Shown: positions 6,315-44,322 of the stretch, one piece after another
How positions within the stretch are numbered: position 1 is the first letter of the stretch
Layout of the letters: the number at the start of each line of letters is the position of its first letter
Assembly: GCA_016178625.1 (NCBI GenBank)
Contig: JACOSX010000135.1
Location: 7,130 to 71,129, forward strand
Length of the DNA: 64,000 nucleotides
Reading direction: 5' to 3'
Origin: Ignavibacteria bacterium
GTDB lineage: Bacteria > Bacteroidota > Ignavibacteria > UBA10030 > SZUA-254
Notes under the pieces: model-generated
The model's input: only the letters and a program-made list of their open reading frames with translations
What the model was told of the DNA's origin: nothing
Databases searched by the model: none
Made by a program: the position numbers and the translations under genes

Positions 6315-6342
6315 TTTCATTCATATTGCGCGCTGGAGGTTT

Positions 6343-8121
6343 ATGACGAGGCGTATCTTCTTCCTTCTCATCACGCTTTCTACGACGGTTTGCGTGTCTC
6401 AAACAATTCCGGAGAAATGGTTAACATATTACGAACAGAGTGGTTTCAAGAAAACTCCACGGTATGCAGAGACCATTGAGTTCTGCAAGAGGTTAGAGAA
6501 AGCGTCGCCGTGGATCAAAGTGATGAGTTTCGGAAAAAGCCCGGAGGGGAGGGACCTTTCCTTAGTGATTGCATCGAAGGAGAGAGCGTTCGATCCGGTG
6601 AAAGCATCGAAATCGAACAAAGCAATCCTTCTCATCCAAAACGGAATCCACGCCGGTGAGATCGATGGGAAAGACGCGTGCTTGATGCTTCTCCGCGATA
6701 TCGCGATCACGAAAACAAAATCTTCCCTGCTCGATCATGTGATTCTTCTCGTCATCCCAGTCTATAATGTCGATGGGCACGAGCGATTCGGACCGTACAA
6801 CCGGATCAATCAACAAGGTCCCGAGGAAATGGGGTGGCGTGTCACCGGTCAAAATCTCAACCTCAATCGTGATTATTTGAAAGCGGATGCGCCCGAAACG
6901 CAAGCCTGGTTAAAGCTCTTTACTTCATGGCTGCCTGATTTCTTCATCGACTGTCATGTAACTGACGGCGCTAATTTCCAACACGCGATCACCTATGGCA
7001 TCGAGTACCACGAAAACGTTGCGTCCACGGTGCGGACGTGGATCCTGGACAAATATTTACCGGCTCTCTCGCATCTCGAAACGGGAGGGGCACCGGTCGC
7101 ACCATACATTTTTCTTCGCGACGACAAAGATCCCACGAAGGGTCTGCAGGGAGGAACTGCACCACCCCGCTTTTCTACAATTTATGTGACACTCCAGAAT
7201 CGCCCTGGACTGCTGATCGAAACACACATGTTGAAAGATTATAAGACGCGCGTGAGTGGAACCTACCGAATGATCGAAGTGACCCTTGAGCGCATGAATC
7301 AAGAGTATACATCTCTTCGCTCTGCGGTTCGGAGTGCCGATGCTCAGACAAGTAAAGGAGTTGAGCGACCCTTTCCGTTACAGTTCGAGTCGGTTGATGT
7401 GCCCAATCAGGTTTTTCATTACATGGGGTTGCAGCAGAAAAATGAACCGAGCGAGATCTCCGGCGGAACGCGCACTATTTACACGCAAGATCCATTCGAA
7501 GTGAATGTTCCGCGATATGATAGTATCAAAGTTACGAAGTTCGTCGATCCGCCAACTGCTTACCTGATCCCTCAGCAGTGGAAGGAAGTGATCGAAAGAC
7601 TGAGAATGCACGGCGTAAAAATCGAACGTCTCAAGGTTGAAACTGAGCTGGACGTCGAGTTGTATCGATTCTCGAATGCCAAGTGGCAGCAAACTCCCTT
7701 TGAAGGTCGGCATGGGGCGACGTATTCAGTTGAAACGATGAATGGGAAACGAACTTTTCCCGCAGGCACGGCAGTTGTACGGCTGAACCAGCGGGCGGGC
7801 CGGGTGGTCCTTCATGCTCTCGAGCCTGAAGCCCCCGATGCGTTCGCGGCATGGGGGTTCTTCGACGCGGTGTTCGAACAGAAAGAATATGCGGAAGATT
7901 ATGTCATGGAATCGATGGCGAGAGAGATGCTTGCCAAGGATCCAGCGTTGAAAAAAGAATTTGACTCCAAGCTTCAGTCGGACACAGCGTTTGCAAAAAG
8001 CCCTGGATCGAGGCTGAACTTTTTTTATCAACATTCTCCATACTGGGATAATCAGGTGAACCTTTACCCTGTTGCGCGGCTGATGAAGGACGTTCCTTTG
8101 CAAACAGACCCATGGCGATAA
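6343..8121 (+). CDS. M14-family zinc carboxypeptidase, secreted
   Basis: Signal peptide. LLIQNGIHAGEIDGKDA is the HxxE zinc site, and VYNVDGHERF and NLNRDY blocks are present. Confidence 0.85.
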   Translation: MTRRIFFLLITLSTTVCVSQTIPEKWLTYYEQSGFKKTPRYAETIEFCKRLEKASPWIKVMSFGKSPEGRDLSLVIASKERAFDPVKASKSNKAILLIQNGIHAGEIDGKDACLMLLRDIAITKTKSSLLDHVILLVIPVYNVDGHERFGPYNRINQQGPEEMGWRVTGQNLNLNRDYLKADAPETQAWLKLFTSWLPDFFIDCHVTDGANFQHAITYGIEYHENVASTVRTWILDKYLPALSHLETGGAPVAPYIFLRDDKDPTKGLQGGTAPPRFSTIYVTLQNRPGLLIETHMLKDYKTRVSGTYRMIEVTLERMNQEYTSLRSAVRSADAQTSKGVERPFPLQFESVDVPNQVFHYMGLQQKNEPSEISGGTRTIYTQDPFEVNVPRYDSIKVTKFVDPPTAYLIPQQWKEVIERLRMHGVKIERLKVETELDVELYRFSNAKWQQTPFEGRHGATYSVETMNGKRTFPAGTAVVRLNQRAGRVVLHALEPEAPDAFAAWGFFDAVFEQKEYAEDYVMESMAREMLAKDPALKKEFDSKLQSDTAFAKSPGSRLNFFYQHSPYWDNQVNLYPVARLMKDVPLQTDPWR

Positions 8122-12259: not shown

Positions 12260-12326
12260 TGAATTTAACGTGAGCGATATGGAAGCGTCGTTCAAACTTT
12301 CGATCATCCTGTGAATATTCTTTTGC

Positions 12327-14767: not shown

Positions 14768-17293
14768 ATGAGTATGCGGTTGCTGGTTGTTTTGTTTTGT
14801 ATCGTTTTCTCCTTCTCATGTGCTCTTGCCGGAACGAGCGGCATTCTTGAGGGCAGAGTCATTGATAAAGACACGAAAGAACCTCTGGTGGGTGTATCAG
14901 TTATCATTGTTGGCACATCTCAGGGTGCGGCAACGGATGTCGACGGAAATTTCCAGATCAATAATGTCGAAGCTGGTATGTACGATCTCCGGTTCACGAA
15001 CATTGGTTACCAAACTTTGGTCTACCGGAAGGTTGACGTTCGCACCGATCTGCGCACAAAGATTTCCATAGAGCTTGTTCCTTCTGCCGTTGAATTGGGC
15101 GAGATCGAAGTAACTGCAGAACGTCCGTTGATCGAGAAGGATGTCACGAGTACCAATTATTCTCTCGGGCAGTCCCAGGTTGACAAGTTGCCGATCCGGA
15201 ACGTTCAGGATCTCATTACTCTGTTTCCAAGTGTCACCGCGGAGGGAAATGTTCGTGGGGGTAAAATTACCGAAGTTGTTTACATGGTTGACGGGTTGCC
15301 GATGCAAGATGTTGTGGGAGGCGGCGTTGGAAGTACATTGCCGAAGAGCTCGATTACGGAATTTTCTATACAGTCCGGCGGGTTCGATGCAGAATATGGC
15401 AACGCTCTTTCCGGGGTCATCAATATTATCACCCGTCGTGGTACCGACCGACACAACCTTGTGTTGCGAGTGGAAAAAGATGACTGGCTTGCAGGCGGAT
15501 GGAATCAGCAGCATAATCGATCTTCAGAAATTGAATGGACGCTGTCTGGGCCGCTCGTCCGTGAACGTCTTCACTACTTCACTGCAAACACCATCCAACT
15601 GAACGATACGCGCTGGTGGCAGGATTTTAACAAATTCTTCAACTCTCCCGTCACGTCAGATGTGAGTGGCTTGGGAAAACTGGATTATACTGTCTCATCG
15701 CGCGTCCGTCTCACCGCACAGAATGTGTATTCCGTCAAACGCTGGCGGGATTACGAATTCAGTTGGCGATTCAATCTCAATGGCTTGCCTCCGAGGAGGC
15801 GTTCTTCGTATCGCACAACAGCCACACTCTCTCACACGATCTCTGATATTGTTCATTACTCGTTAAGTTTCAGCCATTACTTTTTGGAATCACGATTGGG
15901 TGAGGACAAGAATGCTCTCGATCTCACGCCATACGAATATGATTTTTATCTCGAGTATGTCACCCGCGGAAGCAGGGCATGGTGGTCGGATACGAAACAG
16001 AAGATCTACACCGGAAAGACTGATTTCGTGATCCAGCCGAATCCACATAACGTTATCAAGATGGGATTTGAGTTGAACCAGTACGATATCTTTTCGGATA
16101 TCGTGAAGTACGAACCGCAGCGCACATATTTCGGAAAGATTCTTCCCGATGAACCGCTGCTCAATTATAGCACGGCATATCACTATTATCCGAGGGCGGG
16201 CAGCGCGTATTTCCAGGATAAATTGGAAGTGGAGAAGGATGGAGCCGTCGTGAACTTAGGTTTCCGATGGGACTTCCTCGACCCGCGCAGTGAGCGCCCA
16301 GTTGTTGAATACGTCAAACCAGATAGCACTGCGGGGCAATTTCAATCTCAAGTGACGAGGTTCGTGCCTGCATCGCTCAAGCAGCAGATCAGTCCGCGCA
16401 TGGGCTTATCATTCCCGCTCATGTATAACATGTTGCTGGTGATGAACTACGGTCACTACTTTCAGTTCCCTCTCTTTGATTATCTATATTCTGGTATCAA
16501 TCCACAACAATTGCGGAGCGGCGTCAGTGTTCTTGTCGGGAATCCGGACTTGAAGCCCGAACGAACACATGCATGGGAGATCGGTGTCAAATATGGTCTC
16601 GATGAAAAATCGCTCTTAAGCGTGACGTACTTCAAGAAGGAGTTCATTGACCAGATTGATTCAAAGACCTTTCTCCCATCAAAAGCCCGTCTTGCTGGTG
16701 ATTATGGATTTGCCGAGTATGTCAACAATGCATTTGCGAATGCAGAGGGTCTTGAGTTCGTCCTCTCCCGGAATCGCGACGAGAAACTTTCAGGATCAAT
16801 TTCATATTCACTCATGAGGACGGAAGGGGTGAGTGAATATGTGAACCAGGGAATCAATTTACAACAGTGGGGGTTTCCGGTGTTGAATGAGCCTTACCCA
16901 TTGAGTTGGGATCAACTGCATACGTTGAAGGTTGCTGTTGATGCTCAACTACCGTTAGAGATCGTGTGTAATATGATCTGGACGTACAATACGGGCCGAC
17001 CGTACACGTACTTCCCCACCCGCGATGGGTACACCGCTGAGGACACGACGGTAGCATTTATTCCCAACAATGCGCGACTACCGGCAGACAATCTTGTCAA
17101 CGTCAAGTTCTCGAAGAAGTTTGTGATTGGGGGGCTAACGTCATTGTCGGTATATGGAGATATCCGCAATCTCTTCAATGCAAAGAACGCAAAGTGGTCT
17201 GATGCGAACGGACGAATCGGCGGACAGCTCGCCGATCCTTCCGCCTACTATGAACCTCGTCGAGTATCGATAGGACTTCGTTATGAGATGTAA
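14768..17293 (+). CDS. TonB-dependent receptor with N-terminal CarboxypepD_reg-like domain
   Basis: Signal peptide. GRVIDKDTKEPLVGVSVIIVGTSQGAATDVDGNFQINNVEAGMYDLRF is the carboxypeptidase regulatory-like domain. A plug and a long beta-barrel ending ...GLRYEM follow. The ORF-track TTG start is 14744. Confidence 0.9.
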   Translation: MSMRLLVVLFCIVFSFSCALAGTSGILEGRVIDKDTKEPLVGVSVIIVGTSQGAATDVDGNFQINNVEAGMYDLRFTNIGYQTLVYRKVDVRTDLRTKISIELVPSAVELGEIEVTAERPLIEKDVTSTNYSLGQSQVDKLPIRNVQDLITLFPSVTAEGNVRGGKITEVVYMVDGLPMQDVVGGGVGSTLPKSSITEFSIQSGGFDAEYGNALSGVINIITRRGTDRHNLVLRVEKDDWLAGGWNQQHNRSSEIEWTLSGPLVRERLHYFTANTIQLNDTRWWQDFNKFFNSPVTSDVSGLGKLDYTVSSRVRLTAQNVYSVKRWRDYEFSWRFNLNGLPPRRRSSYRTTATLSHTISDIVHYSLSFSHYFLESRLGEDKNALDLTPYEYDFYLEYVTRGSRAWWSDTKQKIYTGKTDFVIQPNPHNVIKMGFELNQYDIFSDIVKYEPQRTYFGKILPDEPLLNYSTAYHYYPRAGSAYFQDKLEVEKDGAVVNLGFRWDFLDPRSERPVVEYVKPDSTAGQFQSQVTRFVPASLKQQISPRMGLSFPLMYNMLLVMNYGHYFQFPLFDYLYSGINPQQLRSGVSVLVGNPDLKPERTHAWEIGVKYGLDEKSLLSVTYFKKEFIDQIDSKTFLPSKARLAGDYGFAEYVNNAFANAEGLEFVLSRNRDEKLSGSISYSLMRTEGVSEYVNQGINLQQWGFPVLNEPYPLSWDQLHTLKVAVDAQLPLEIVCNMIWTYNTGRPYTYFPTRDGYTAEDTTVAFIPNNARLPADNLVNVKFSKKFVIGGLTSLSVYGDIRNLFNAKNAKWSDANGRIGGQLADPSAYYEPRRVSIGLRYEM

Positions 17294-24281: not shown

Positions 24282-26603
24282 ATGGGAAAATCAGTATTAA
24301 TTGTAGAGTCGCCGGCGAAAGCTAAGACCATCAATAAGTATTTGGGCAAGGACTATGTTGTGTATGCTTCTGTAGGACATATCAAGAATCTCCCAAAGAG
24401 CAAGATCGGCGTAGATATTGAGGCAGGATATACCCCAACCTTCGAAACAATTAGTGGCAAGGAGGAAGTTGTTGAACGGTTGCGCGAAGCGGCAGCGAAA
24501 GCAGAAGACGTCTATATCGCGACTGACCCCGACAGGGAAGGGGAAGCAATCGCCGCGGACATCGCTGAGGAAATCTCAGATAAGAATTCCAACATTCACC
24601 GCGTTCTTTTCCACGAAATCACCGAGCGCGGCATCGCTGAAGCGATGAAACATCCCAAGAAGATCAATGATGACATCGTTGCCAGCCAGCGTGCCCGTCG
24701 AGTCATGGATCGAATCGTTGGCTATAAGATTAGCCCCTTTGTCTGGAAGACCATGTTTTATGGACTCTCTGCGGGCCGCGTTCAGTCCGTTGCCCTTCGG
24801 TTGATCTGCGAACGCGAGGTGGAGGTCAACGCGTTTATGCCAACCGAGTATTGGTCGATCATTGGTGAGTTTAAGATGCACACGAGCGATGCATTCTACG
24901 CGAAGCTTTTCAGGATTGACGGGAAGGATCTCTTTGTCCCTTCAAAAGACGCGCTTACTGAAATTCAACATAAGGGAACCCACGACAAGTTTACCTACAT
25001 CCCTTCCGAAAAAGACGCGAAGCATTATATAGAGGACATCAATGGGCAATCATTTTCGATTGCCAATGTCCAGAAACGAGATATACGCCGTAATCCATTG
25101 CCTCCATTTATTACGAGCACGTTGCAACAGGAAGCCTCGCGGAAGTTGTATCTCTCGGCATCGCGTACGATGAAGCTCGCCCAAAAACTCTATGAAGGAA
25201 TCGAGATGGGCGCCGAGGGTTCGGCAGGTCTCATTACCTACATGCGTACCGACTCAACACGATTAAGCGATGACGCGGTGGCGAGCGTTCGGGAGTATAT
25301 TTATAATAATTATGGAAAAGAATATCTTCCCAAACATCCCCACCTCTACAAGAAGAAAAAGACTTCTCAGGATGCACACGAGGCGATTCGACCGACATCG
25401 ATGAAGTATACACCGGGCTTCGTCAAGAAATATTTGGATAAGGATCTCTACCGACTCTATGAATTGATTTGGAACCGCTTTGTCGCGTGCCAGATGGAAT
25501 CTGCAATCATGGAAACAACCACGGTTGTCATCGAGGGGGGAAAATATCAATTTAAGGCTACGTCATCGTACTACAAGTTTAGAGGGTTCCTCCAAGTGTA
25601 CGATGATGCCGCTAATGCGGAGAAGCAAGAAGAAGAGGATCCGGAAGTTCGCGACGAAAAACTGCCGCAGAATCTTGCTGAGGGTCAAGCGGCCCGTCTG
25701 GTGAGTGTAGTGCCGCACCAACACGAAACGTCTCCACCTCCGCGCTACACGGAAAGTAGTTTAGTGAAAACACTCGAGGCGTTAGGTATCGGCAGACCGA
25801 GCACGTACGCGATGATTGTTAGCACGATCATGGATAGAAAATACGTCGAACAGCGCGAGAGAAAGTTATATGCGTTGCAACTGGGTATGGAAGTCAATAA
25901 ACTGCTGACAACTCACTTCCCAAACATCTTCAATGTACGATTCACTGCGAAGATGGAAGAGGAACTCGATACGATTGCCTCAGGGAAGAACGAGTATAAG
26001 GCGGTCTTAGATGATTTCTACATTCCCTTTCACGAGTCGCTGGAGAAAGCGTCGAAGAAAGCATCTGCTATCAAGAAATCTTTGCAGGTGGAAACGGAGG
26101 AAGCATGTGAAGTATGCGGTAAGCCTATGATTATCAAGTGGGGGCGCAATGGAAAGTTCATGGCATGTAGCGGTTATCCCTCATGCAAGACGACTAAGCC
26201 ATTGCCTGAGGATCAAGAGAAGGTTCAACACATGGTAGGACTTAAGTGTGAAGTCTGCGGTGGAGAGATGTTAGTTCGCTCGAGCCGGTTTGGGACATTC
26301 CTTGGCTGTTCAAACTATCCCAAATGCAAGAACACTAAGCCGATTACTATGGGAATTAAATGTCCCAAGTGTCAGAGCGGGGAGCTTCTCGAACGGAAGA
26401 CCAAACGCAAACGGACGTTTTACGGGTGTTCGCGTTATCCGGAATGCGACTTTGCATCATGGGATAAGCCTTCGAATCAACCGTGCGAGACTTGCGGCGC
26501 ACCGTTTATGGTCATAAAGTATTCAGAAAAGCGGGGTGAGTACTTAAAATGTCCTTCGTGCAAGAGCGAGGTTGAAAAGCTTGACGTTGCCGTTGCAGGG
26601 TGA
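24282..26603 (+). CDS. topA: DNA topoisomerase I (type IA) with four C-terminal zinc ribbons
   Basis: The Toprim N-terminus is LIVESPAKAKTINKYLG, and the active-site region is GLITYMRTDS. Four CxxC...C..C modules are present (CEVCGKPM, CEVCGGEM, CPKCQSGE, CETCGAPF). Confidence 0.97.
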   Translation: MGKSVLIVESPAKAKTINKYLGKDYVVYASVGHIKNLPKSKIGVDIEAGYTPTFETISGKEEVVERLREAAAKAEDVYIATDPDREGEAIAADIAEEISDKNSNIHRVLFHEITERGIAEAMKHPKKINDDIVASQRARRVMDRIVGYKISPFVWKTMFYGLSAGRVQSVALRLICEREVEVNAFMPTEYWSIIGEFKMHTSDAFYAKLFRIDGKDLFVPSKDALTEIQHKGTHDKFTYIPSEKDAKHYIEDINGQSFSIANVQKRDIRRNPLPPFITSTLQQEASRKLYLSASRTMKLAQKLYEGIEMGAEGSAGLITYMRTDSTRLSDDAVASVREYIYNNYGKEYLPKHPHLYKKKKTSQDAHEAIRPTSMKYTPGFVKKYLDKDLYRLYELIWNRFVACQMESAIMETTTVVIEGGKYQFKATSSYYKFRGFLQVYDDAANAEKQEEEDPEVRDEKLPQNLAEGQAARLVSVVPHQHETSPPPRYTESSLVKTLEALGIGRPSTYAMIVSTIMDRKYVEQRERKLYALQLGMEVNKLLTTHFPNIFNVRFTAKMEEELDTIASGKNEYKAVLDDFYIPFHESLEKASKKASAIKKSLQVETEEACEVCGKPMIIKWGRNGKFMACSGYPSCKTTKPLPEDQEKVQHMVGLKCEVCGGEMLVRSSRFGTFLGCSNYPKCKNTKPITMGIKCPKCQSGELLERKTKRKRTFYGCSRYPECDFASWDKPSNQPCETCGAPFMVIKYSEKRGEYLKCPSCKSEVEKLDVAVAG

Positions 26604-26614
26604 TCAGATCATTC

Positions 26615-27520
26615 ATGAAAGAGTATATCCGAACATATCTTGACTACATTGGGAAGGAGCGAAATTATTCTCGCCACACGTGTGGCGCGTATGAGGATGA
26701 TCTCGGTCAATTCTATGATTTCCTCCTTCGCCATTTCTCTGGCTCAGGATTTTCGATCTCTTCGATCGACCAGCTCACTATTCGACTCTTTCTTGGTGAC
26801 CTCCTAGAACACGGCAAGAGTAAGAAAAGTGTGGCTCGTAAGCTTGCGGCGGTTCGATCGTTTTTTAAATATCTTGTGAAGCAAAAGATTGTTGCTTATA
26901 ACCCGGGGATCAACGTCGTAACACCGCGACTGCCGAAGCGATTGCCCACATTTCTGGACGAGCCGTCGATTGCAACGATGATGAAGCTTCCCGACTGCTC
27001 TACTGTGATGGGGGTGCGCGACCGGGCTATTCTTGAGCTTCTGTATGGAACAGGCATTAGACTGAGTGAGCTCATTCAACTGGATCTTGGTGATATCGAC
27101 TTGAAAAATGATACGGTGAAAGTGTTTGGGAAAGGAAGAAAACATCGGATTGTGCCGCTGGGGAGAAAAGCGAAAGCAGCCATGATTGATTACTTCGGCC
27201 AGAGGGAAACTCTGTTTTCTACTCGCACCCGCACCGAAGACCGGACCGCGGTATTTCTTTCTGCGCGGGGACAGCGTATATATCCGAAGGGTGTCCATCT
27301 CATTGTGAGCAGGTATATTGGGTCAGTGTCTGAGTTAGAGAGGAAAAGTCCCCACGTCCTTCGCCACACATTTGCAACACATCTATTGAATCGTGGTGCC
27401 GACCTACGCGCCGTAAAAGAGTTACTCGGTCACGAGAGTTTATCTACTACACAAATTTATACTCATGTAACTGTTGACCGCCTCAAGAGGATTTACACGC
27501 AAGCGCATCCGAAGGCGTAA
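26615..27520 (+). CDS. xerC: Tyrosine site-specific recombinase XerC/XerD family
   Basis: N-terminal SAM-like domain (YLDYIGKERNYSRHTCGAYEDDL). The catalytic blocks are GTGIRLSEL, HVLRHTFATHLL, GADLRAVKELLGHESLSTTQIYTHV. A GTG at 26600 is an alternative start. Confidence 0.9.
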   Translation: MKEYIRTYLDYIGKERNYSRHTCGAYEDDLGQFYDFLLRHFSGSGFSISSIDQLTIRLFLGDLLEHGKSKKSVARKLAAVRSFFKYLVKQKIVAYNPGINVVTPRLPKRLPTFLDEPSIATMMKLPDCSTVMGVRDRAILELLYGTGIRLSELIQLDLGDIDLKNDTVKVFGKGRKHRIVPLGRKAKAAMIDYFGQRETLFSTRTRTEDRTAVFLSARGQRIYPKGVHLIVSRYIGSVSELERKSPHVLRHTFATHLLNRGADLRAVKELLGHESLSTTQIYTHVTVDRLKRIYTQAHPKA

Positions 27521-33757: not shown

Positions 33758-35866
33758 GTGAACAAACAGGTTGACCCGCCAGACCTGCCTGCCGGCGGGC
33801 ATGGGGTGGGTTTTGAACGCATACTTGTGACAGCCGCGTTACCCTATGCGAACGGGAAGATCCATCTCGGTCATCTTGCTGGCGCGTATCTCCCATCAGA
33901 TATCTATGTCCGATATCAGCGCTCGATGAAACGAGACGTAGTGTTCCTTTGTGGCTCCGACGAACACGGTGTTCCGATCACGATCACTGCAGAACAGGAG
34001 AAGACAACGCCTCAGGCGGTGGTCGATCGATACCATGCATTGAACAAGGCTGCGTTTGAAAAATTCGGGATGAGCTTCGATAATTATTCTCGCACGTCGA
34101 TGCCGCTTCATCATGAGATGGCAAGAGAATTTTTTCTCGAACTTCACAAGGCGGGAGTTCTCAAGGAGAAGAAAGAGAAGCAGCTCTACGATAAGAAAGC
34201 GGGGATGTTCTTACCCGATCGCTATGTGGAGGGAACGTGCCCCGTGTGCGCAAACCCTGACGCACGAGGGGATCAGTGTGAAAGGTGTGGAACCTTTCTG
34301 AACCCTACCGACCTCAAAAACCCGCGCAGTAAAATCACCGGTGAGACTCCCACTGTTAGAGAGACGACACATTTCTATTTTCCTCTCGGCGCGTATCAAC
34401 AGCAGTTGGAAGAGTACATTGCCGCCGCCGATGCCCGCGATGGATGGAAGGAAAATGTCCTGCAATACTGTCGCGGCTGGTTTAAGGAAGGATTGCAGGA
34501 CCGAGCCGTGACGAGAGACTTGGATTGGGGTGTAAAGATTCCAATCAAGGGCTATGAGACCAAAGTGCTCTATGTCTGGTTCGATGCCGTTCTCGGCTAT
34601 GTCTCCGCGACGAAGGAATGGGCATCTCAGCAGGGTCACCCCGACAAATGGAAGAATTATTGGCTCAGTTCTACGACAAAGTATGTTGCGTTCATCGGAA
34701 AGGACAATGTCGTGTTTCACTGCATTGTCTTTCCGGCAATGCTCATGGCATGGAATGCAACCTCGCCTGGCAAGTATGTGCTTCCTGAAAATGTTCCCGC
34801 GAATGAATTCCTGAATTTCGAAGGACAGAAGTTCTCGAAGAGCCGCGGCTGGGGGATCGATGTGGATGAGTTTCTGGAGGAATTCCCCGCCGACGCGCTG
34901 CGGTATACGCTCACGATGAACTTGCCCGAACTACGCGACACAGATTTCACGTGGAAAGACTTTCAGGCACGGAACAATAATGAGCTTGCGGACATTCTCG
35001 GGAACTTCATCAACCGCACATTCACTTTTGCCCATCGGAATTTTGATGGAAAGATTCCGGAACTGGGACCTCTCAATGATCTTGACAAGCAATTACTATC
35101 TTCCCTGCAATCGGTGCCGAAGAAAGCGGGTAAACTGTTCGAGCAGTATCATTTCCGAGATGCCGTCCTTGAGATCATGAACCTCGCACGCTTTGCGAAC
35201 AAGTACTTCAATGATAGTGAACCATGGAAAACGCTGAAGACCGATCCCGTCCGATGTGCGACAACGATTAATCTGTGTCTGCAGGCGATCCGTTCTCTCG
35301 CAATCCTCCTCGAACCGACCGTGCCGTTCAGCGCTGCGAAGATGTGGAGAATGTTGAACTTGCCGCAATCTCCCTCTCAGGCGGGATGGAAAAGCGCCGC
35401 GGAAGTTGTTCTCACAACCGGCAGGGGATTGGGGCAGGCGGAGATTCTCTTCTCTAAAATTGAGGACGAGGCGATCAAGAAGCATGTGGAGAAACTTCCG
35501 AGCACTCCTCCATCCACACCCAAGGCATCCGCTGCGAAACCGACCATCAGCATCGACGACTTCAAACAGATCGATCTGAGAATTGCGAAAGTCATTGCTG
35601 CAGAGAAGGTTCCGAAGTCTGATAAACTGCTCAAGCTGCGTGTGAGCATCGGAACGGAAGAGCGACAGGTGATTGCAGGGATTGCGCAACACTACGCACC
35701 CGAAGATCTCGTCGGCAAGAAGATTGTCGTTGTTGCGAATCTTGCGCCCGCCAAGTTGATGGGTCAAGAGTCACAAGGAATGATACTTGCTGCGTCTGAT
35801 AACAACGGTAAACTTTCAATCCTCACCATAGCAACTGATCTTGCAGAGGGAAGTGTCGTCAAGTAA
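33758..35866 (+). CDS. metG: Methionine--tRNA ligase with C-terminal tRNA-binding (EMAP/Trbp111-like) domain
   Basis: ALPYANGKIHLGHL is the HIGH motif, CPVCANPDARGDQCERCG the zinc knuckle, and KFSKSRG the KMSKS motif. The C-terminal DLRIAKVIAAEKVPKSDKLLKLRV is the OB fold. Confidence 0.95.
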   Translation: MNKQVDPPDLPAGGHGVGFERILVTAALPYANGKIHLGHLAGAYLPSDIYVRYQRSMKRDVVFLCGSDEHGVPITITAEQEKTTPQAVVDRYHALNKAAFEKFGMSFDNYSRTSMPLHHEMAREFFLELHKAGVLKEKKEKQLYDKKAGMFLPDRYVEGTCPVCANPDARGDQCERCGTFLNPTDLKNPRSKITGETPTVRETTHFYFPLGAYQQQLEEYIAAADARDGWKENVLQYCRGWFKEGLQDRAVTRDLDWGVKIPIKGYETKVLYVWFDAVLGYVSATKEWASQQGHPDKWKNYWLSSTTKYVAFIGKDNVVFHCIVFPAMLMAWNATSPGKYVLPENVPANEFLNFEGQKFSKSRGWGIDVDEFLEEFPADALRYTLTMNLPELRDTDFTWKDFQARNNNELADILGNFINRTFTFAHRNFDGKIPELGPLNDLDKQLLSSLQSVPKKAGKLFEQYHFRDAVLEIMNLARFANKYFNDSEPWKTLKTDPVRCATTINLCLQAIRSLAILLEPTVPFSAAKMWRMLNLPQSPSQAGWKSAAEVVLTTGRGLGQAEILFSKIEDEAIKKHVEKLPSTPPSTPKASAAKPTISIDDFKQIDLRIAKVIAAEKVPKSDKLLKLRVSIGTEERQVIAGIAQHYAPEDLVGKKIVVVANLAPAKLMGQESQGMILAASDNNGKLSILTIATDLAEGSVVK

Positions 35867-37720: not shown

Positions 37721-37770
37721 CTATTAGAGAGGTACGGTATGAGAATCCTGACCGTTATTTTTTGAACAAA

Positions 37771-37809
37771 GTCCCGAAGGTCCGAAGGAATCCCTTCGGG
37801 ACTTCGGAC
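37771..37809. repeat. GC-rich nested hairpin (GTCCCGAAGG / CCTTCGGGAC)
   Basis: A perfect 10-bp stem pairs 37771-80 with 37793-802. An overlapping alternative stem pairs GTCCGAAG (37780-87) with CTTCGGAC (37802-09). Confidence 0.6.
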
Positions 37810-38182
37810 ACTTCGTTCAGAATGACACCCTTTTCTTTTTGGACAGCCTCAGAATTTTCCTCCCCCTCAATGAGCGGGAGTGTCCCGATACATCGGGGCG
37901 AGGGGGTCATAAAAGCCATCGCCATAAGCCATGGTAGGTTACTATGGTATTACACCGGGAGTTCTTCTCGTATCGGCGTGTCAGGTGTGAGGCGAGCAGC
38001 ACTTGATGGGAACACCCATCGATGAAGTTCTGAGAAAGAAAACAACAACACCTGCGTGCAGCCCGCGGCTGCCTTCGGTAGAATGCAGCCAATCCCGTCC
38101 GGAAAGTGCGGAACAGGACAAGGTATTGCGTTATCCCGTGGTGTTAGATATTGCTATCTGACACTGACTGAGTGATCGTCAT

Positions 38183-38350
38183 GTGTCAGGTGGGAAGAGA
38201 GTGTCCGAGAACTGGTGCGTCATTGCGAGAACGACGCAGTCGGTCGAAGCAATCAGACTAGACAATGCACTTTTTCAAAGTATGTCAGATTGCTTCGGCA
38301 CTTCGTGCCTCGCAAAGACAGTTCTTGGATAGTCTCGGAAGACCTGACAC
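38183..38350. repeat. ~170-nt imperfect palindrome (MITE-like or structured RNA) built on CATTGCGAG...GAAGCAATC motifs
   Basis: Five perfectly complementary blocks: GTGTCAGG/CCTGACAC (38183-90/38343-50), TCCGAGA/TCTCGGA (38204-10/38333-39), AGAACTG/CAGTTCT (38208-14/38319-25), TTGCGAG/CTCGCAA (38223-29/38309-15), GAAGCAATC/GATTGCTTC (38246-54/38288-96). Confidence 0.7.
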
Positions 38351-38439
38351 CACAATGAAAACACGCTCTACGAGTCTTCCACTCCCCACGGGTCTACGAC
38401 CTCGTAGAGGATCGTAGATAGACAATGCGTATATAAATT

Positions 38440-38460
38440 GTTAGGCGAAATGCGCTTGCA
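38440..38460. repeat. Left inverted repeat bracketing gene 38487..39371
   Basis: GTTAGGCGAAATGCGCTTGCA. Its reverse complement matches 39377-39397 at 20 of 21 positions. It lies 26 nt upstream of the ATG. Confidence 0.85.
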
Positions 38461-38486
38461 ACTCAATTTTTGAAAAGCAATCAATC

Positions 38487-39371
38487 ATGATCAAAAGCAT
38501 ATCCACTCGAATCGCGATTTTGCTCGGCAGTCTCATGTTATTCTTTGGAACAAGCCCTTGCCAACGGTCTAAGTCATTCAAAAACTATGATGAAGCGAAG
38601 GAAGTAGCGTTATCGACGCACAAATTCATATTTGTGACGTTTGAGACGGACGCGGCTGAAGATTTTAATCGAGTAATGTCATCCGGGCCTTCGCCCACCG
38701 GAATCTATCATGCAACTATTAAAGGAGCACCTTGTAGTAATTTTATTCCGCCAGAAGGGTTGGATCAAAATTTCGTGTTCCTCTTGATCCCATACGATGC
38801 AGGATTCGCTCTGCGCAGCAAATATTATTCAGACGATAAAACAGCTTTAGTTTTGGATGGATTCGGCAACGAGCTATATGTTGAAGTCTGCAAAGGCCGA
38901 GATAAGTTGATCCCAATCTTGCAGTCACTACCACAAGATGCCTCCAAGTATTATGGGCTTCTGAGTAGTTTAGTGGATCATCCCGACTCAATAAATCTAA
39001 AAATGGCCATAGCAGATCTCTGCCAACTCTACCGGGCTACGACTGCAAGTAACAAATACTACGGTGAGATTCTAAACTCCCGACAAACTGAGAAAGATTC
39101 CACTCTCTCTGATCACGTTCGATCACACGTGGCATTGAACGCATTCTTAGATTATGACTATAACAACGCTGAGGATCTCTTCGCCAACCATATCAAAGAT
39201 TATCCTCATAGTTCCGAGCGCCCAATGCAGCTGTTTCTACTCACAAAAATCGAAGTTATCAAGAAACACAAAGACGATGCAATTCAATATTTGAAGCTGC
39301 TACAAACTGAATTTCCGAATGATCAACATACCACCTGGGCGAAAAATCTGCTTGATCAATACAAGGAGTGA
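38487..39371 (+). CDS. Secreted protein: degenerate thioredoxin-like N-domain (no CxxC) plus C-terminal TPR-like helices
   Basis: Signal peptide (possible lipobox FGTSPC). YDEAKEVALSTHKFIFVTFETD resembles thioredoxin-like/DUF255 N-termini but lacks cysteines. The C-terminal helical repeats are TPR-like. The call is tentative. Confidence 0.45.
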   Translation: MIKSISTRIAILLGSLMLFFGTSPCQRSKSFKNYDEAKEVALSTHKFIFVTFETDAAEDFNRVMSSGPSPTGIYHATIKGAPCSNFIPPEGLDQNFVFLLIPYDAGFALRSKYYSDDKTALVLDGFGNELYVEVCKGRDKLIPILQSLPQDASKYYGLLSSLVDHPDSINLKMAIADLCQLYRATTASNKYYGEILNSRQTEKDSTLSDHVRSHVALNAFLDYDYNNAEDLFANHIKDYPHSSERPMQLFLLTKIEVIKKHKDDAIQYLKLLQTEFPNDQHTTWAKNLLDQYKE

Positions 39372-39376
39372 GTCGG

Positions 39377-39397
39377 TGCAAGCGCACTTCGCCTAAC
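39377..39397. repeat. Right inverted repeat bracketing gene 38487..39371
   Basis: TGCAAGCGCACTTCGCCTAAC, starting 5 nt after the stop codon. It is the partner of 38440-38460. Confidence 0.85.
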
Positions 39398-39420
39398 GAG
39401 GGTGGAACCCGCGTGCACAC

Positions 39421-39450
39421 GTTATACGCCACGCAGCGTCTCAGGAGTCA
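39421..39450. repeat. Left inverted repeat bracketing gene 39475..40005
   Basis: GTTATACGCCACGCAGCGTC followed by TCAGGAGTCA. The reverse complement of 40021-40050 is ...GTTATGCGCCACGCAGCCGTCAAGAGTCCG. The core has 1 mismatch and 1 indel, and the extension is weaker. Confidence 0.8.
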
Positions 39451-39474
39451 GTTGATTGGTAGGAGTGATTTCAC

Positions 39475-40005
39475 ATGGACTTTTCTCAATTCTTCTCAGA
39501 TGTCTTGGCAACAGTGATTGGTGCGGGTCTTGCTCTATGGGGACCAATTTGGCTTGATCGCAAGACCCACTCAAGAGACGAAATGGCCAAAGATAGAGAG
39601 AAACAAAAACGAGCAGGGCAAGTGCTCTCGCTCATCTCTCAAGAGCTTCAGTTCAATTCTGACGCGTTGCGGGCCATCGACGACAATGTTCAAAGCACCT
39701 ACCGCCAGACCCGGGTTGAGACGTGGCAAGCTCTTTCGGACGGCGGTGAACTCAAGCCAATTGACGACCCTGAGTTGCTTGGCCTCATTTCAACCGCATA
39801 CGCTAATATTAGCCATTTTGCCATTCTCTATAACAAGTTTTTTGACATGAAGTTTTTTCCAAAAAAGAATGCGTATGACGCCCTCAAGGATATACTCAGG
39901 AATCATGCAATGAAGGCGAAAGAAGATTCTAGTATTGCAGTGAACATTGCACTTGGTGAGATTTCTAAGAAGTTACCAAAGCATGCTAACAAGTCGGCTG
40001 ATTGA
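39475..40005 (+). CDS. Hypothetical N-terminally membrane-anchored helical protein (176 aa)
   Basis: One N-terminal TM (FFSDVLATVIGAGLALWGPIWL) followed by a charged helical region. SD GGAG lies upstream. No family was recognised. Confidence 0.5.
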   Translation: MDFSQFFSDVLATVIGAGLALWGPIWLDRKTHSRDEMAKDREKQKRAGQVLSLISQELQFNSDALRAIDDNVQSTYRQTRVETWQALSDGGELKPIDDPELLGLISTAYANISHFAILYNKFFDMKFFPKKNAYDALKDILRNHAMKAKEDSSIAVNIALGEISKKLPKHANKSAD

Positions 40006-40020
40006 CCAATACGTGTTTCA

Positions 40021-40050
40021 CGGACTCTTGACGGCTGCGTGGCGCATAAC
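40021..40050. repeat. Right inverted repeat bracketing gene 39475..40005
   Basis: CGGACTCTTGACGGCTGCGTGGCGCATAAC, the partner of 39421-39450. It starts 16 nt after the stop codon. Confidence 0.8.
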
Positions 40051-40116
40051 AAAGCGGCAACACGACGCGCTCAGTCGAATCTTGGAAGCTCAACGCTTCC
40101 TCTCACAATAAATTGA

Positions 40117-40163
40117 TCCATTTGGAGTTTGCCACACTATTGTGTATTTTTATGAATCGTTTG
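40117..40163 (+). promoter_or_regulatory. Copy 1 of a conserved intergenic element containing a sigma70-like promoter (TTGCCA-N16/17-TATGAAT)
   Basis: TCCATTTGGAGTTTGCCACACTATTGTGTATTTTTATGAATCGTTTG. By hand alignment, 38 of 47 positions are identical to 41623-41668. It lies ~100 nt upstream of ATG 40265. Confidence 0.5.
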
Positions 40164-40264
40164 CTCAACTGCCACACTTTGTGCAAACACTACCTTCGCG
40201 GAGGTAACATCTAATTCGGACTTTCTCATTTACATAAACCTCGTCATCTCTGGAAAAATCTATC

Positions 40265-41575
40265 ATGAAATCCACACTCTTTCTCGTCGCAGCAACTCTG
40301 GTGGTCCTCATTCAGTCGTCAGCCCAAAATAACAACTGGAGCGTGAGTGTGAAGAACGGACCGATTTACGATAACGTATCTCTTCAAGCACTTGTCGGTG
40401 ACTCGCTTTCGGTCCGCGACTCGATGCAAACCTACATGCTTCCCATTGCTTCCATTGCGAAGGTGGTGCGTGACGAGCACGGTTCGCGGGTTGCAACAGG
40501 CTTAGTTGTGGGTGCAGTGACTGGTAGTGCCCTCGGTTTCTTGGCCGCTCAATTGTTGGACAAAAAGAGCCCGAGCGGAAATTACTACTATTATTCATCC
40601 GGGGAGGAAAACAACAAAACCGCATATATGCTCGTGGGAGGTGGTGTCGGGAGTCTCGTTGGCCTTTTTGCTGGCTTATCATCCGTGACGAAGACCTACA
40701 ATCTGCAAAAGATGGGATTAGAGGAGAGAAGAATAACTCTTGAATCAATCTTATGGAAAGAAGGGAGACAGCTGTCTCACGCCCAGCCTGAACAGAGAGA
40801 TGTTGCATATCTGAAAAACGGCAGCATCATTAGAGGCACAATTTTCGAAGTGATACCCGATAGCACGGTAACGATTCAGACGGCTGACAAAAGTATGTTT
40901 AAATTCAAGATGACGGAGATTGAGAAGATCACAAAGGAAGTTTCAACAACAGACAGTACCATCGACTTCAAGAAGAACGATCCTCCCAAACCTGTCTTCG
41001 GTGTCTACGCTGGTCTCGCCGCGCCTGCGGGAGAGTTTGGTGCAACTGATCTTAACGGTGGAGCCGCGAAGACTGGCTTTTGCTTTGGCGGAGAGATGAG
41101 CCTCCAAACAACCGCTGGAATCGGCTGGCTCTCGAGTTTGACTTTTTTATTCAACGGCGTTGATGCGAGCAGCTTAGTACTCCCAGATTCTTTCCATGCA
41201 ACCGTTGATGTTGGGCCATGGTTCCTAATAATGCCGATGACCGGTGTAAGATTTGGCGGACCGATTTCTCCGAACATTGCTATATTTGGTCTTGGACAGA
41301 TCGGTTTGCTCATCGGCAATAGTCCAGAGATCAACATGTCAATCAACAGTCCAACTGCCCGTGGCAGTGTCAAGGTCGCATCAGCCACAGGGACGGCATT
41401 TACCTTTGCTGTCGGTGGTGGATTGATCTTCAACAACAATATTACTGCCGGTGCGCGGTACCTGCATGGGGAGCCTGAATACACTTTGACAATATCCGGT
41501 AATGGCGGTTCAGTATCAAGCAAAGGTAAACAATCGACATCGATCTTTCAGATTACTGCGGGGTACAATTTCTGA
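40265..41575 (+). CDS. Hypothetical outer-membrane protein: glycine-zipper segments, KNGS..RG..-type small domain, C-terminal beta-barrel
   Basis: Signal peptide. GLVVGAVTGSALGFLAAQ and LVGGGVGSLVGLFAGL are glycine zippers. AYLKNGSIIRGTIFEVIPDSTVTIQT follows. Alternating-hydrophobicity strands end ...FQITAGYNF with a terminal Phe, the OMP signature. Confidence 0.5.
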   Translation: MKSTLFLVAATLVVLIQSSAQNNNWSVSVKNGPIYDNVSLQALVGDSLSVRDSMQTYMLPIASIAKVVRDEHGSRVATGLVVGAVTGSALGFLAAQLLDKKSPSGNYYYYSSGEENNKTAYMLVGGGVGSLVGLFAGLSSVTKTYNLQKMGLEERRITLESILWKEGRQLSHAQPEQRDVAYLKNGSIIRGTIFEVIPDSTVTIQTADKSMFKFKMTEIEKITKEVSTTDSTIDFKKNDPPKPVFGVYAGLAAPAGEFGATDLNGGAAKTGFCFGGEMSLQTTAGIGWLSSLTFLFNGVDASSLVLPDSFHATVDVGPWFLIMPMTGVRFGGPISPNIAIFGLGQIGLLIGNSPEINMSINSPTARGSVKVASATGTAFTFAVGGGLIFNNNITAGARYLHGEPEYTLTISGNGGSVSSKGKQSTSIFQITAGYNF

Positions 41576-41622
41576 AATAGTACACAATGGTGGGAAGTCG
41601 GAGCTTGCTCACCATGAACTGG

Positions 41623-41668
41623 TCCATTTGGAGTTCGCAACACTATTCCGTACTTTTACAATCGTTGT
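41623..41668 (+). promoter_or_regulatory. Copy 2 of the conserved intergenic element (TTCGCA-N17-TACAAT)
   Basis: TCCATTTGGAGTTCGCAACACTATTCCGTACTTTTACAATCGTTGTG. Weaker similarity to copy 1 extends ~35 nt upstream and ~15 nt downstream. Confidence 0.5.
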
Positions 41669-41743
41669 GCAATTCTATCAACACATCAAATAAAAAGTTG
41701 GTACCAGAAAATCAGCATGAAGAACTAATTATTTTTTTATAAC

Positions 41744-41923
41744 TGATGTTACGCGGACGAGGTGTATTTGAAAAGTTCTAATAATCGTAGCTGCTTTCCT
41801 AAGTATGACCTCTCCTATAATCCTCCCCTCATAGGGGAGGATGTTAAAACATCCTCTCCTCACAGGAGAGGGTTAGGGGTGAGGTCCAAAAAAGGAATCA
41901 ATCTTTGATTCTGCGTAACATCA
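41744..41923. repeat. 180-nt non-coding module bounded by a perfect 11-nt inverted repeat (TGATGTTACGC / GCGTAACATCA) and containing twin 8-bp hairpins
   Basis: The inverted repeat is at 41744-54 and 41913-23, with flanks extending it imperfectly. The internal hairpins are CCTCCCCT-cat-AGGGGAGG (41822-40) and CCTCTCCT-cac-AGGAGAGG (41853-71), followed by GTTAGGGGTGAGGT. Confidence 0.7.
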
Positions 41924-41955
41924 ATTAATAAACCAAATCCCTCTTGGAGAAACTC

Positions 41956-44322
41956 ATGGCGTCCATCAAACATCATCGTGTGGTAATGACTTGTCTTTTG
42001 CTCATCACTATTTCCTTCGTGGGATACGCACAACAGAAGGTGGCTTCAAACAAATCGAACTACGACTATGTGAACCCCTTTATCGGAACGCAGGAAATGG
42101 GACATACTTTTCCCGGCGCCTGTGTCCCTTTTGGGATGGTACAACTCAGCCCTGAAACAGATACGGTTGAATACTTTGACAACGGGAAATATAATCCCAA
42201 TGTATATCGGTACTGTGCAGGTTACCAATATGCCGATAGAACAATTGTTGGATTCAGTCATACGCACTTTAGCGGAACCGGGCATTCCGATCTTGGTGAT
42301 TTCTTGATCATGCCGACCACCGGACAATTACAACTCAGTCCCGGAACTGCCGCACATCCTGAACGTGGCTACCGCTCACCGTTTAGTCACAATGAGGAAT
42401 CTGCTTCGCCTGGTTATTACCGTGTGAGATTACATAAATACAACATTAACGCCGAGCTTACAGCTACGACCAGAGTAGGGTTTCATCAATACACATTTCC
42501 TCAAACAGATAGCGCTCACATCATTCTTGATATGAACTACAGCTTATACAATTACCCGGGCAAAGTGTTGTGGAGCTACGTCCGTGTTGAGAATGATACG
42601 CTCGTTACGGGCTATCGAATAACTCAGGGTTGGGCACGCACCCGGTATCTTCATTTCGCGATGAGCTTCTCGAAACCGTTCAAAGGATATGGATATAAGA
42701 ACGATGAAGAACCCTCGTACAAAGGCTTCTGGAGGAAGTTCAATCAGTATGACAATTTCCCCGAGATGGCAGGTAAGAACATAAAAGCCTATTTTGATTT
42801 CAGCACACATCAGAATGAAAAGATAAAAATTAAATTGGCAATCTCATCGGTCAGCACGGAAGGTGCTTTGAAGAACCTTCGCTCGGAAATTCCTCACTGG
42901 AATTTTGAGACCATCCGTTCCGATGCTCGCACATTGTGGGGAAAAGAACTAGACAACGTTTCAATTACGGCTCCCGACAGCACAAAGACGAGTTTCTACA
43001 CCTCTTTGTATCATGCCTATATCAGTCCGATTACATACAGCGATATCGATGGGAATTATAGGGGGTTAGATAACAACATCCATACGGCGGATAAATATAC
43101 CAACTACACGATATTTTCTTTGTGGGATACGTACCGAGCGTTGCATCCGCTGTTCACGATCCTTCAGCCGAAGCGGGTTTCCGATATGGTTCAATCCATG
43201 CTCGATCATTACGACCAGAGCGCGCACAAACTATTACCAATTTGGACACATGACGGAAATGAAAACTGGTGCATGATCGGTTATCACAGTGTGCCGGTCA
43301 TTGCCGATGCATATCTCAAAGGCATTCGCGACTACGATGTCAAGAAAGCATTCGAGGCGTGTGTGGCAACTGCTACACATGAATCCTTCCAGGGTATCGG
43401 CGACTATGTCAGATATGGGTATGCCCCATTAGACAAACTAAGTAACTCGGCTTCCATAACATTGGAATATGCCTACGATGATTTTACAGTTGCACAGTTT
43501 GCCAAGGCAATGAACAAACCCGACATAGAAAAACAATTCATGCAGAGGGCGATGAGTTATCGAAACATATTTGATCCTTCGACCGGGTTCATGAGAGCGA
43601 AAGATTCAAAAGGAAATTGGCAAACGCCGATGGACCCTTTGAGCACTGAGGGACAAGGTTTCATTGAAGGAAACGGGTGGAACTATTCTTTCTATGTCCC
43701 ACAGGACGTCAATGGTTACTCAAAGCTTCTGGGCGGCGACAATGTGCTGGTCCGGAAGTTGGATTCTCTCTTCAACATGCAGCTCGATGAGAAATACTTT
43801 GAAAGCACTGAAGATGTTACCCGCGCCGGACTGATAGGTAGTTATGACCAAGGCAATGAACCCAGTCATCATATCTGTTATATGTATGATTGGACCGGAC
43901 AACCGTGGAAGACCCAAGAGAAAATACATTTGGTCATGAATAAAATGTACCGCAGTTTACCTGATGGACTATGCGGCAATGACGACTGCGGGCAAATGAG
44001 CGCATGGTACATTTTCAGCGCATTAGGGTTTTATCCTGTTTGTCCGGGAACTAACCAATACGTCATTGGTAGCCCGTGTGTGAGAGAGGCTAAGTTAGCG
44101 TTGCAAAACAATAAGACCTTTGTCGTGAAAGCCATGAATCTGAGCGGAAAGAATATATATATACAATCAGTAACCCTCAACGGCAAGCAGTTAAACAAGA
44201 CGTATATCATGCATAACGAAATCGTTGACGGCGGTGAATTAGTTTTCACCATGGGCAACAAGCCCAATAAAGAATGGGGTGTGGCTCAAGATGACAAACC
44301 GTATTCTATTTCCAACAAATGA
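41956..44322 (+). CDS. GH92-family alpha-mannosidase, secreted
   Basis: NPFIGTQEMGHTFPGACVPFGMVQLSPET, WDTYRALHPL and GNEPSHHICYMYDWTGQPWKTQ are hallmark GH92 blocks. The ORF-track TTG start is 41944. Confidence 0.9.
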   Translation: MASIKHHRVVMTCLLLITISFVGYAQQKVASNKSNYDYVNPFIGTQEMGHTFPGACVPFGMVQLSPETDTVEYFDNGKYNPNVYRYCAGYQYADRTIVGFSHTHFSGTGHSDLGDFLIMPTTGQLQLSPGTAAHPERGYRSPFSHNEESASPGYYRVRLHKYNINAELTATTRVGFHQYTFPQTDSAHIILDMNYSLYNYPGKVLWSYVRVENDTLVTGYRITQGWARTRYLHFAMSFSKPFKGYGYKNDEEPSYKGFWRKFNQYDNFPEMAGKNIKAYFDFSTHQNEKIKIKLAISSVSTEGALKNLRSEIPHWNFETIRSDARTLWGKELDNVSITAPDSTKTSFYTSLYHAYISPITYSDIDGNYRGLDNNIHTADKYTNYTIFSLWDTYRALHPLFTILQPKRVSDMVQSMLDHYDQSAHKLLPIWTHDGNENWCMIGYHSVPVIADAYLKGIRDYDVKKAFEACVATATHESFQGIGDYVRYGYAPLDKLSNSASITLEYAYDDFTVAQFAKAMNKPDIEKQFMQRAMSYRNIFDPSTGFMRAKDSKGNWQTPMDPLSTEGQGFIEGNGWNYSFYVPQDVNGYSKLLGGDNVLVRKLDSLFNMQLDEKYFESTEDVTRAGLIGSYDQGNEPSHHICYMYDWTGQPWKTQEKIHLVMNKMYRSLPDGLCGNDDCGQMSAWYIFSALGFYPVCPGTNQYVIGSPCVREAKLALQNNKTFVVKAMNLSGKNIYIQSVTLNGKQLNKTYIMHNEIVDGGELVFTMGNKPNKEWGVAQDDKPYSISNK

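Follow-up and report, generated by a model that had tools for sequence, protein, structure and literature searches.

What places a single gene between two imperfect inverted repeats, twice in succession, when the two repeat pairs differ in sequence and yet both begin with GTTA and end with TAAC? This question is raised by a 64,000-nucleotide (nt) stretch of DNA from an Ignavibacteria bacterium (GenBank assembly GCA_016178625.1, contig JACOSX010000135.1, positions 7,130 to 71,129), here called the window, in which the open reading frames (ORFs) at 38487–39371 and 39475–40005 are each enclosed in this manner. A first-pass annotation made from the sequence in isolation had held that no annotated feature class explains the arrangement. 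This was wrong, as integron core sites fit both ends of both modules. The modules are most probably integron gene cassettes, probably with a third, in a short array 3′ of metG on an Ignavibacteria chromosome; the array has no nearby integrase and resembles attC-site clusters without an integron integrase (CALIN). Cassette starts and attC sites carry the core-site consensus GTTRRRY (R′) and RYYYAAC (R″) (PMC5027507, PMC2674596), and read against this consensus the two modules and their junction comprise the following features.

38440–38460, forward strand: left end of cassette 1, GTTAGGCGAAATGCGCTTGCA, composed of R′ GTTAGGC (a perfect GTTRRRY) and a 14-nt cassette-specific extension.
38487–39371, forward strand: cassette 1 gene, 294 amino acids (aa), with a hydrophobic N-terminus and a weak TPR/YbgF-like C-terminus.
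39377–39397, forward strand: right end of cassette 1, TGCAAGCGCACTTCGCCTAAC, composed of the 14-nt extension and R″ GCCTAAC (a perfect RYYYAAC).
39391–39427, forward strand: attC1, composed of GCCTAAC, 23 nt and GTTATAC; 37 nt in total, without L boxes.
39421–39440, forward strand: left end of cassette 2, GTTATACGCCACGCAGCGTC, composed of R′ GTTATAC and an extension.
39475–40005, forward strand: cassette 2 gene, 176 aa, with an N-terminal transmembrane helix; its family is present as a cassette in several arrays.
40030–40050, forward strand: right end of cassette 2, GACGGCTGCGTGGCGCATAAC, composed of the extension and R″ GCATAAC.

The arms of pair 1 are complementary at 20 of 21 positions, and a 21-nt inverted repeat of at least 20/21 within 5 kb is expected by chance 0.005 times per 64 kb. 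For pair 2 the arms agree at 16 of 17 positions without gaps and, once aligned, at 19 of 20 positions plus one 1-nt indel. Coordinates and complementarity are as first annotated (with 1 mismatch and 1 indel for pair 2), and so are the distances of 26 nt to the ATG, 5 nt past the stop codon and 23 nt between the modules. The accompanying claim that chance could be dismissed stands. The ungapped 16/17 core of pair 2 is not rare by itself (~1 expected per window), and we accept pair 2 as real because it is anchored by GTTA/TAAC, extends to 20 nt and is conserved in homologues. Apart from pairs 1 and 2, no GTTA...TAAC pair in the whole window reaches 15/20 complementarity, and shuffled sequence contains 0–4 pairs that do, at the 15/20 level only. 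The proposal that these are non-random brackets with common GTTA/TAAC ends around one gene each, left by a recombination system, is upheld. GTTAGGC/GCCTAAC fits GTTRRRY/RYYYAAC exactly, and GTTATAC/GCATAAC is one base off in each half. Each module has the boundaries of a cassette, with a GTTRRRY-type start and an end at which an attC opening with RYYYAAC is complementary to the module's own start; the polarity of the intermodule junction, RYYYAAC...GTTRRRY, is that of an integron attC, and the content of small, co-oriented ORFs of unknown function fits a cassette array.

Brackets of this kind follow from the way integron cassettes move. A free circular cassette has one attC, an imperfect hairpin with R″ paired to R′ as the R box at its base. 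The integron integrase, IntI, a tyrosine recombinase, cuts the bottom strand between the G and the TT of R′, and on insertion the linear cassette starts at its 5′ end with TTRRRY and the sequence 3′ of it, with R″ and the remaining attC at its 3′ end. This redistribution at the crossover leaves every cassette bracketed by its own GTT.../...AAC repeats, unlike those of its neighbours. The complementarity in the window extends 13–14 nt past the 7-bp core, which in the rejoined circle would lengthen the R-box stem to ~20 bp. We infer that IntI inserted the cassettes by bottom-strand attC × attI or attC × attC recombination, and the extra 13–14 bp would clamp the R box at the hairpin base in the excised circle and may be retained for that reason.

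The first-pass annotation had expected such brackets to recur and their arms to be conserved in homologues, and both expectations were borne out among relatives. Homologues of the cassette 2 protein are few, 11 beyond the window's own out of 5.8 billion sequences, and a metagenome scan using the gene-2 alignment returned only 4 loci. A GTTA-arm...arm-TAAC bracket encloses the gene in 7 of the 10 gene-2 loci examined (the window itself, which is counted here, and the loci L004, L005, L008, L089, L090 and L091; homologues 50–68% identical at the aa level), in unrelated contexts, and the gene-2 cassette with its own ends sits beside different neighbours in different arrays, as a unit of transfer would. 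L004 and L005 have the same left-arm type as cassette 2 (GTTAkACGCCACGCAGCC); in L004 the homologue, bracketed by GTTAGACGCCACGCAGCCGCA / TGCGGCTGCGCAGCGTATAAC, heads a run of eight small, co-oriented ORFs of unknown function. The brackets of L008, L089, L090 and L091 are of another sequence type, GTTAGGCAACCGCC, GTTAGGCAACCGCT, GTTAGGCAGCCACTT and GTTAGGCAACCGCCCC, with exact complements, and L089 has three consecutive cassettes, each with its own extended bracket (14/14, 12/13 and 14/15).

The clearest context is that of L091, whose bracket (16/16) is flanked by two near-identical elements of 159–160 nt, GCCTAAC-AAGCGGCTGGAGCTGACGG...CCGCCGCAGCTCAGCCGCGGCC-GTTAGGC, which run directly from TAAC to GTTAGGC and have conserved 25-nt ends and a variable middle. 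Their bottom strands are predicted to fold into long, imperfect, bulged hairpins (z = −4.5 for one copy), and by sequence and predicted fold these elements qualify as textbook attC sites. The same terminal stem is present in L008 and L007, and L boxes are paired in the sites of L008, L007 and L003. A relative of cassette 2 is in this way located between canonical, mutually similar attC sites.

For gene 1 only 3 homologues beyond the window's own were found out of the 5.8 billion proteins. One, in L006 (63% identical), keeps the upstream left arm as GTTAGGCGAAATGC; a second, in L003, has a diverged copy of the left arm upstream and, after it, an attC-like site whose L-box stem measures 9 bp; the more distant third, in L002, is without arms and located among core genes. 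The cassette 1 protein matches the YbgF TPR model of NCBIfam below cutoff (E = 1.7e-7) and had no hit in the Pfam scan, and PADLOC, Pfam and NCBIfam gave no confident family for the cassette proteins.

Inverted repeats exactly at the ends of single-gene units with no enzyme inside, and the same gene and arms in different contexts, would also be left by non-autonomous, transposon-like cassettes of the mobile insertion cassette (MIC) or miniature inverted-repeat transposable element (MITE) type, on whose terminal inverted repeats a transposase from another locus would act. We regard this as very unlikely. Neither module has a target-site duplication (flanks ATAAATT / GAGGGTG for module 1 and TGCACAC / AAAGCGG for module 2), the arms beyond GTTA/TAAC differ between neighbours and between homologues as one transposase would not tolerate, the relatives' arms abut canonical attC hairpins, and the same end complementarity is present in a Vibrio integron, as described below. 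Of the earlier proposal of passenger cassettes, the part that stands is that of mobile single-gene cassettes moved in trans; the transposase and its terminal repeats do not fit the cassette-specific arms and the missing target-site duplications.

The integron reading places the selected pairing in DNA. In an alignment of the right and left arms of the seven gene-2-family brackets, 91% of cells are paired and 10 of 16 pairs have changed on both sides; none of 500 shuffles reaches the observed values, and no register shift approaches them. Pairing kept by compensatory changes between arms that lie within untranslated regions is equally what 5′/3′ pairing of the mRNA would give, as a stalk that encloses each transcript and serves its processing or stability, and pairing alone cannot separate DNA from RNA. 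The type of mismatch bears on the strand. Across all brackets, the 10 transition-type mismatches are without exception A·C on the coding strand, equivalent to G·T on the bottom strand, in a small sample to which the degenerate L003 pair contributes 4 of the 10. Integron integrases recombine the bottom strand (PMC5027507). An mRNA would have the A·C form, with G·U available only to the antisense, which argues against a sense-RNA stalk, one of the earlier candidates; a role in RNA would not account for the invariant GTTA/TAAC ends or the adjoining attC sequences either, promoter and terminator scans gave counts equal to those of shuffles with none above background near the arms, and no Rfam family matched. 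We therefore consider the transcript stalk highly improbable, though the arms may have a secondary effect in RNA. Both ends consist of integron core sites, and the arms are part of the cassette and move with it, their pairing being kept by compensatory change.

This pairing makes sense only with the two ends joined. Folded in its array state on both strands, the intermodule junction (39365–39480) is no more stable than shuffles (z = −0.03 and −0.79). When the cassette ends were rejoined at the crossover and then folded, the bottom strand of the cassette 1 circle reached −28.4 kcal/mol (z = −7.5), with a bottom-strand advantage of 1.3 kcal/mol, and that of cassette 2 reached −32.8 kcal/mol (z = −5.5), 4.4 kcal/mol stabler than the top strand. 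In the cassette 2 circle an R stem of 19–20 bp is predicted, then a spacer of 5/4 nt (the unpaired spacer of a typical attC measures 5–6 nt), an L stem of 7 bp (GTGGCAA/TTGCCGC) and a variable loop. In attC2 the succession of R box, spacer, L box and loop appears only when the site regains its own R′, which happens in the circle. This geometry requires that the R′ of attC2 be ATTGTGT at 40139, with the crossover after its A, and thereby defines a third cassette. The features concerned, which include a weaker bracket around the next gene that the first-pass annotation did not have, are as follows.

40044–40145, forward strand: attC2, ~100 nt, composed of R″ GCATAAC, a spacer, L″ CGGCAAC, a variable region, L′ GTTTGCCAC, a spacer and R′ ATTGTGT.
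40102–40152, forward strand: conserved 3′ part of attC2, which is copy 1 of a 51-nt direct repeat, 82% identical to 41608–41658.
40139–40151, forward strand: left end of a putative cassette 3, ATTGTGTATTTTT, tentatively assigned; complementary at 11 of 13 positions to 41576–41588.
40265–41575, forward strand: cassette 3 gene, 436 aa, with a signal peptide and a C-terminal outer-membrane beta-barrel (Pfam OMP_b-brl, E = 3.9e-5, below cutoff).
41576–41651, forward strand: right end of cassette 3, AATAGTACACAAT with R″ ACACAAT, and attC3, which ends in ...GTTCGCAACAC followed by TATTCCGT.

The variable region of attC2 holds a GGAAGC/GCTTCC hairpin, and its R′ has A in place of G. Its 5′ end, TAAC followed by AAAGCGGC, agrees with that of the attC sites in L091 and L008 (TAAC followed by AAGCGGC). 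The 3′ boundary of attC2 is tentative, with GTTTGCT at 40159 as an alternative R′. Equally tentative is the third cassette unit around the 436-aa gene, whose putative core sites are ATTGTGT...ACACAAT and whose attC3 is missing its 5′ half. At 37 nt, attC1 looks like a truncated attC with an internal deletion, and it is probable that cassettes 1 and 2 have fused into a pair; fusion of cassettes through attC loss is known from class 1 integrons (PMC4670013).

Two successive attC-like sites of the window share the 51-nt direct repeat as their 3′ part, and it occurs again at L006 430–480. Within the window the motif TTTGGAGTTYRCMMCA is found in two places only, the two repeat copies, and it is also present upstream of the cassette 1 homologue in L006. 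The repeat contains TTTGGAGTT...TAyTTTTA, which resembles the Bacteroidetes-type −33 TTTG / −7 TAnnTTTG promoter. Judged by this motif, each cassette may carry its own promoter inside the preceding attC.

As a control we used the chromosomal integron of Vibrio sp. HDW18, which was located through a consensus of the Vibrio cholerae repeats (VCRs; 98% match), and measured 32 of its VCR cassettes. Between a cassette's own start and its own R″ the complementarity has a median of 9–9.5 nt and a maximum of 14 nt exact or 16 nt with one mismatch, compared with 5–6 nt for non-self pairs of ends. Cassette-specific end complementarity past the 7-bp core is a general integron property and follows from the crossover between G and TT. 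Its length in the window (20–21 nt) and in the relatives (13–25 nt) lies at or beyond the long end of the Vibrio range, and a literature search returned no explicit earlier description of extended cassette-end complementarity.

A 6-kb island flanked by metG (33758–35866) and a GH92 glycosidase gene (41944–44322) holds the modules; it consists of small ORFs of unknown function and long gene-less stretches, and Rfam gave nothing relevant for it. The methionyl-tRNA synthetase (MetRS) encoded by metG shares 69% identity with its counterpart in an uncultured Ignavibacteria metagenome-assembled genome (MAG), followed by matches from Ignavibacteria, Melioribacter and Bacteroidota. The holB-metG synteny is kept in two relatives; nothing downstream of metG is conserved in them, so no empty site can be defined. 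Exact-protein look-ups of the flanking genes for alternative junctions in the same samples returned no records. The only tyrosine recombinase found in the window lies outside the element.

26600–27520, forward strand: XerC-type tyrosine recombinase.

This protein scores 335 bits with the NCBIfam XerC model (cutoff 335.15) and 137 bits with the integron-integrase model TIGR02249 (cutoff 265). The search for an integrase covered 31 window ORFs, comprising the island and all but one of the ORFs of 260–400 aa, and among these no IntI, which in a complete integron would lie beside an attI and a Pc promoter, was found; nor was an integrase found in L004 or L089. Since no IntI was found, the locus is filed as CALIN-like and not as a complete integron. 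It is either a CALIN-like remnant or the distal stretch of an array that has its platform beyond the window. Integrons are on record for Ignavibacteriae (PMC9024848).

A tyrosine recombinase 11 kb away, and 20-nt inverted repeats around a segment, which are the usual signature of invertible DNA, are what whole-gene invertons would call for, in which a site-specific invertase flips the gene between its arms. The recombinase scores as XerC, however, and no invertase was found nearby; an independent assembly of the same population (L001) is collinear and 100% identical, the gene is co-oriented with its neighbours in every related array, and it is not obvious what would be switched by flipping a gene that has no promoter. 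Although it was among the first candidates, we hold inversion to be extremely improbable. The independent assembly, a Logan contig (SRR12113389), spans window positions 38410–41923. Its start lies 30 nt ahead of cassette 1 and its end 20 nt short of the GH92 start codon, which corresponds exactly to the three-cassette block; these breaks could reflect graph branching, from presence/absence variation in the population, or simply coverage.

Several points weigh against assigning these modules to an integron. The attC assignments were made by manual anatomy and by homology to better sites. At 37 nt, attC1 is below the 57-nt minimum of the canonical attC size range (57–141 bp; PMC5027507). The array-state folds of attC2 and attC3 are not significant, and R′ of both is ATT, not GTT; the array-state folds of the L004 and L005 sites are likewise not significant. 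Neither an integron integrase nor an attI was found in the window, outside of which lie ~17 kb of the source contig, or in the fetched relatives. The arm covariation comes from essentially two clades, or arm types, and a few changes within clades, so the number of independent events is small. The bottom-strand wobble bias was not reproduced in Vibrio (5 versus 6), a control that is uninformative because most mismatches there lie beyond the paired part. We infer that the array is mostly frozen and decaying, because attC1 is truncated, attC3 is halved, R-box pairing in the array state is poor and no intI is in view.

A more specific proposal is that a lineage associated with Ignavibacteria has a long R-stem extension (13–25 bp, compared with the canonical 7 bp and ~9–10 bp in Vibrio) that is maintained by compensatory changes and permits bottom-strand G·T wobbles only. 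We think this unlikely. If it were true, the excised circle and not the array would be the selected substrate, and the stem could take over part of the role of the L box and variable loop. The 37-nt attC1, a 65-nt hairpin in the circle, could then still be recombinable and would represent a minimal attC architecture undescribed so far.

Several observations concern the arrays of the relatives and the surroundings of the island. The cassette between the gene-2 terminal arms has one gene in some genomes and two in L005, where a gene-2-type bracket at 3193–4309 surrounds an additional 154-aa ORF (3239–3703) and then the homologue; a neighbouring two-gene unit there has its own 24–25-nt bracket, GTTATGTGAAAATGGCGGCACGCAC / GTGCGTGCCGCCACTTCACATAAC. 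Also in the L005 cassette array (5170–6666), a 498-aa reverse transcriptase (RVT_1) is encoded directly after an attC-like 3′ end, ..CGCCGCAAAC followed by GTTATGC. Rfam detected no group II intron RNA at this locus, and the gene might be a defence-type reverse transcriptase cassette or belong to an attC-targeting intron too diverged to detect. Gene-2 homologues have as neighbours cassettes for a CAP12/Pycsar-type TIR domain, for a TIR_2 protein and for a STAND-like NTPase (L007 1411–1695, L008 2–1030 and L089 1424–3016), which fits the richness in anti-phage defence genes reported for chromosomal integron cassettes (bioRxiv 10.1101/2024.07.02.601686).

Upstream of cassette 1, 37721–38439 is a stretch of 720 nt without genes and with several hairpins, including a 32-nt inverted repeat (38183–38214 / 38319–38350, 75%), a 14-nt repeat (38245–58 / 38284–97) and CCCGAAGG/CCTTCGGG-type stems near 37765–37810; it could consist of decayed ORF-less cassettes or be a remnant of the attI side. 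Between the array and the GH92 gene, 41807–41886 holds the twin short hairpins CCTCCCCTCATAGGGGAGG and CCTCTCCTCACAGGAGAGG, which give spurious microRNA matches in Rfam, and L089 1–400 has two copies of a ~230-nt repeat with similar GTCCCCTCTCAAGAGGGGAC hairpins. These may represent a family of elements of these genomes that resemble repetitive extragenic palindromes (REP-like). Perfect GTTA...TAAC repeats in two MetRS loci, L019 and L060, were examined and set aside as unrelated elements. In L019, a Calditrichia MAG, a 147-aa ORF and the gene of a XerD-like tyrosine recombinase lie between inverted repeats of ~170 nt (13680–13850 / 15350–15520), which are built of GC-rich sub-repeats and contain a perfect 24-nt pair, GTTATTGGGCTTCGCCGTCATTGG; the whole is a candidate recombinase module of invertible or mobile type. 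L060 (Butyricimonas muris) has a 266-nt MITE-like element at 12043–12308, directly after metG, with perfect 24-nt terminal inverted repeats GTTACAGGTTGCATTTGCCTTCGG.

What looked like a gene-bracket class of its own is the ordinary boundary signature of integron cassettes, GTTRRRY...ORF...RYYYAAC. The system is of a known kind; what is new is the host lineage, the cassette genes, which are near-orphans among 5.8 billion proteins, and the unusually long end complementarity. With this locus, one more cassette array joins the small number of integron-type loci on record for Ignavibacteria, and own-end complementarity well past the 7-bp core is quantified both here and in a Vibrio integron. Such complementarity could help to delimit cassettes and to pair orphan attC halves in fragmented metagenomes. 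Together, the co-variation of the arms and their strand-biased wobbles provide an indication, from sequence only, of selection on the bottom strand of the free cassette.

Among known systems, the cassettes most resemble those of sedentary chromosomal integrons such as the Vibrio superintegron with its VCRs. Both have single, co-oriented ORFs of mostly unknown function, the GTTRRRY start, an attC opening with RYYYAAC, own-end complementarity past the 7-bp core and, by the predicted fold of the cassette 2 circle, the same parts of the bottom-strand hairpin (R box, spacer, L box and variable loop). They differ in that the complementarity in the window is longer, the host belongs to Ignavibacteria and not to the gammaproteobacteria, the attC sites are heterogeneous and partly deleted with two R′ of the ATT form, and no IntI or attI is in view. 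With a CALIN, as defined by IntegronFinder and interpreted as a degraded integron (PMC9024848), the locus shares two or three attC-type junctions and their cassettes with no intI within reach; the formal definition uses an attC covariance model, whereas our assignment is by manual anatomy, with the full attC architecture in at most one of three sites (attC2). Fused cassettes of class 1 integrons (blaGES-1/aacA4) show the same partial loss of the first attC between two intact ORFs, and there both ORFs are complete and move only together (PMC4670013), but attC1 of the window keeps both core sites, R″ and R′, and has lost only its interior. Mobile insertion cassettes and MITEs also have terminal inverted repeats around enzyme-free passenger DNA; the modules of the window differ from them in lacking target-site duplications, in having cassette-specific arms and in ending with integron core sites.

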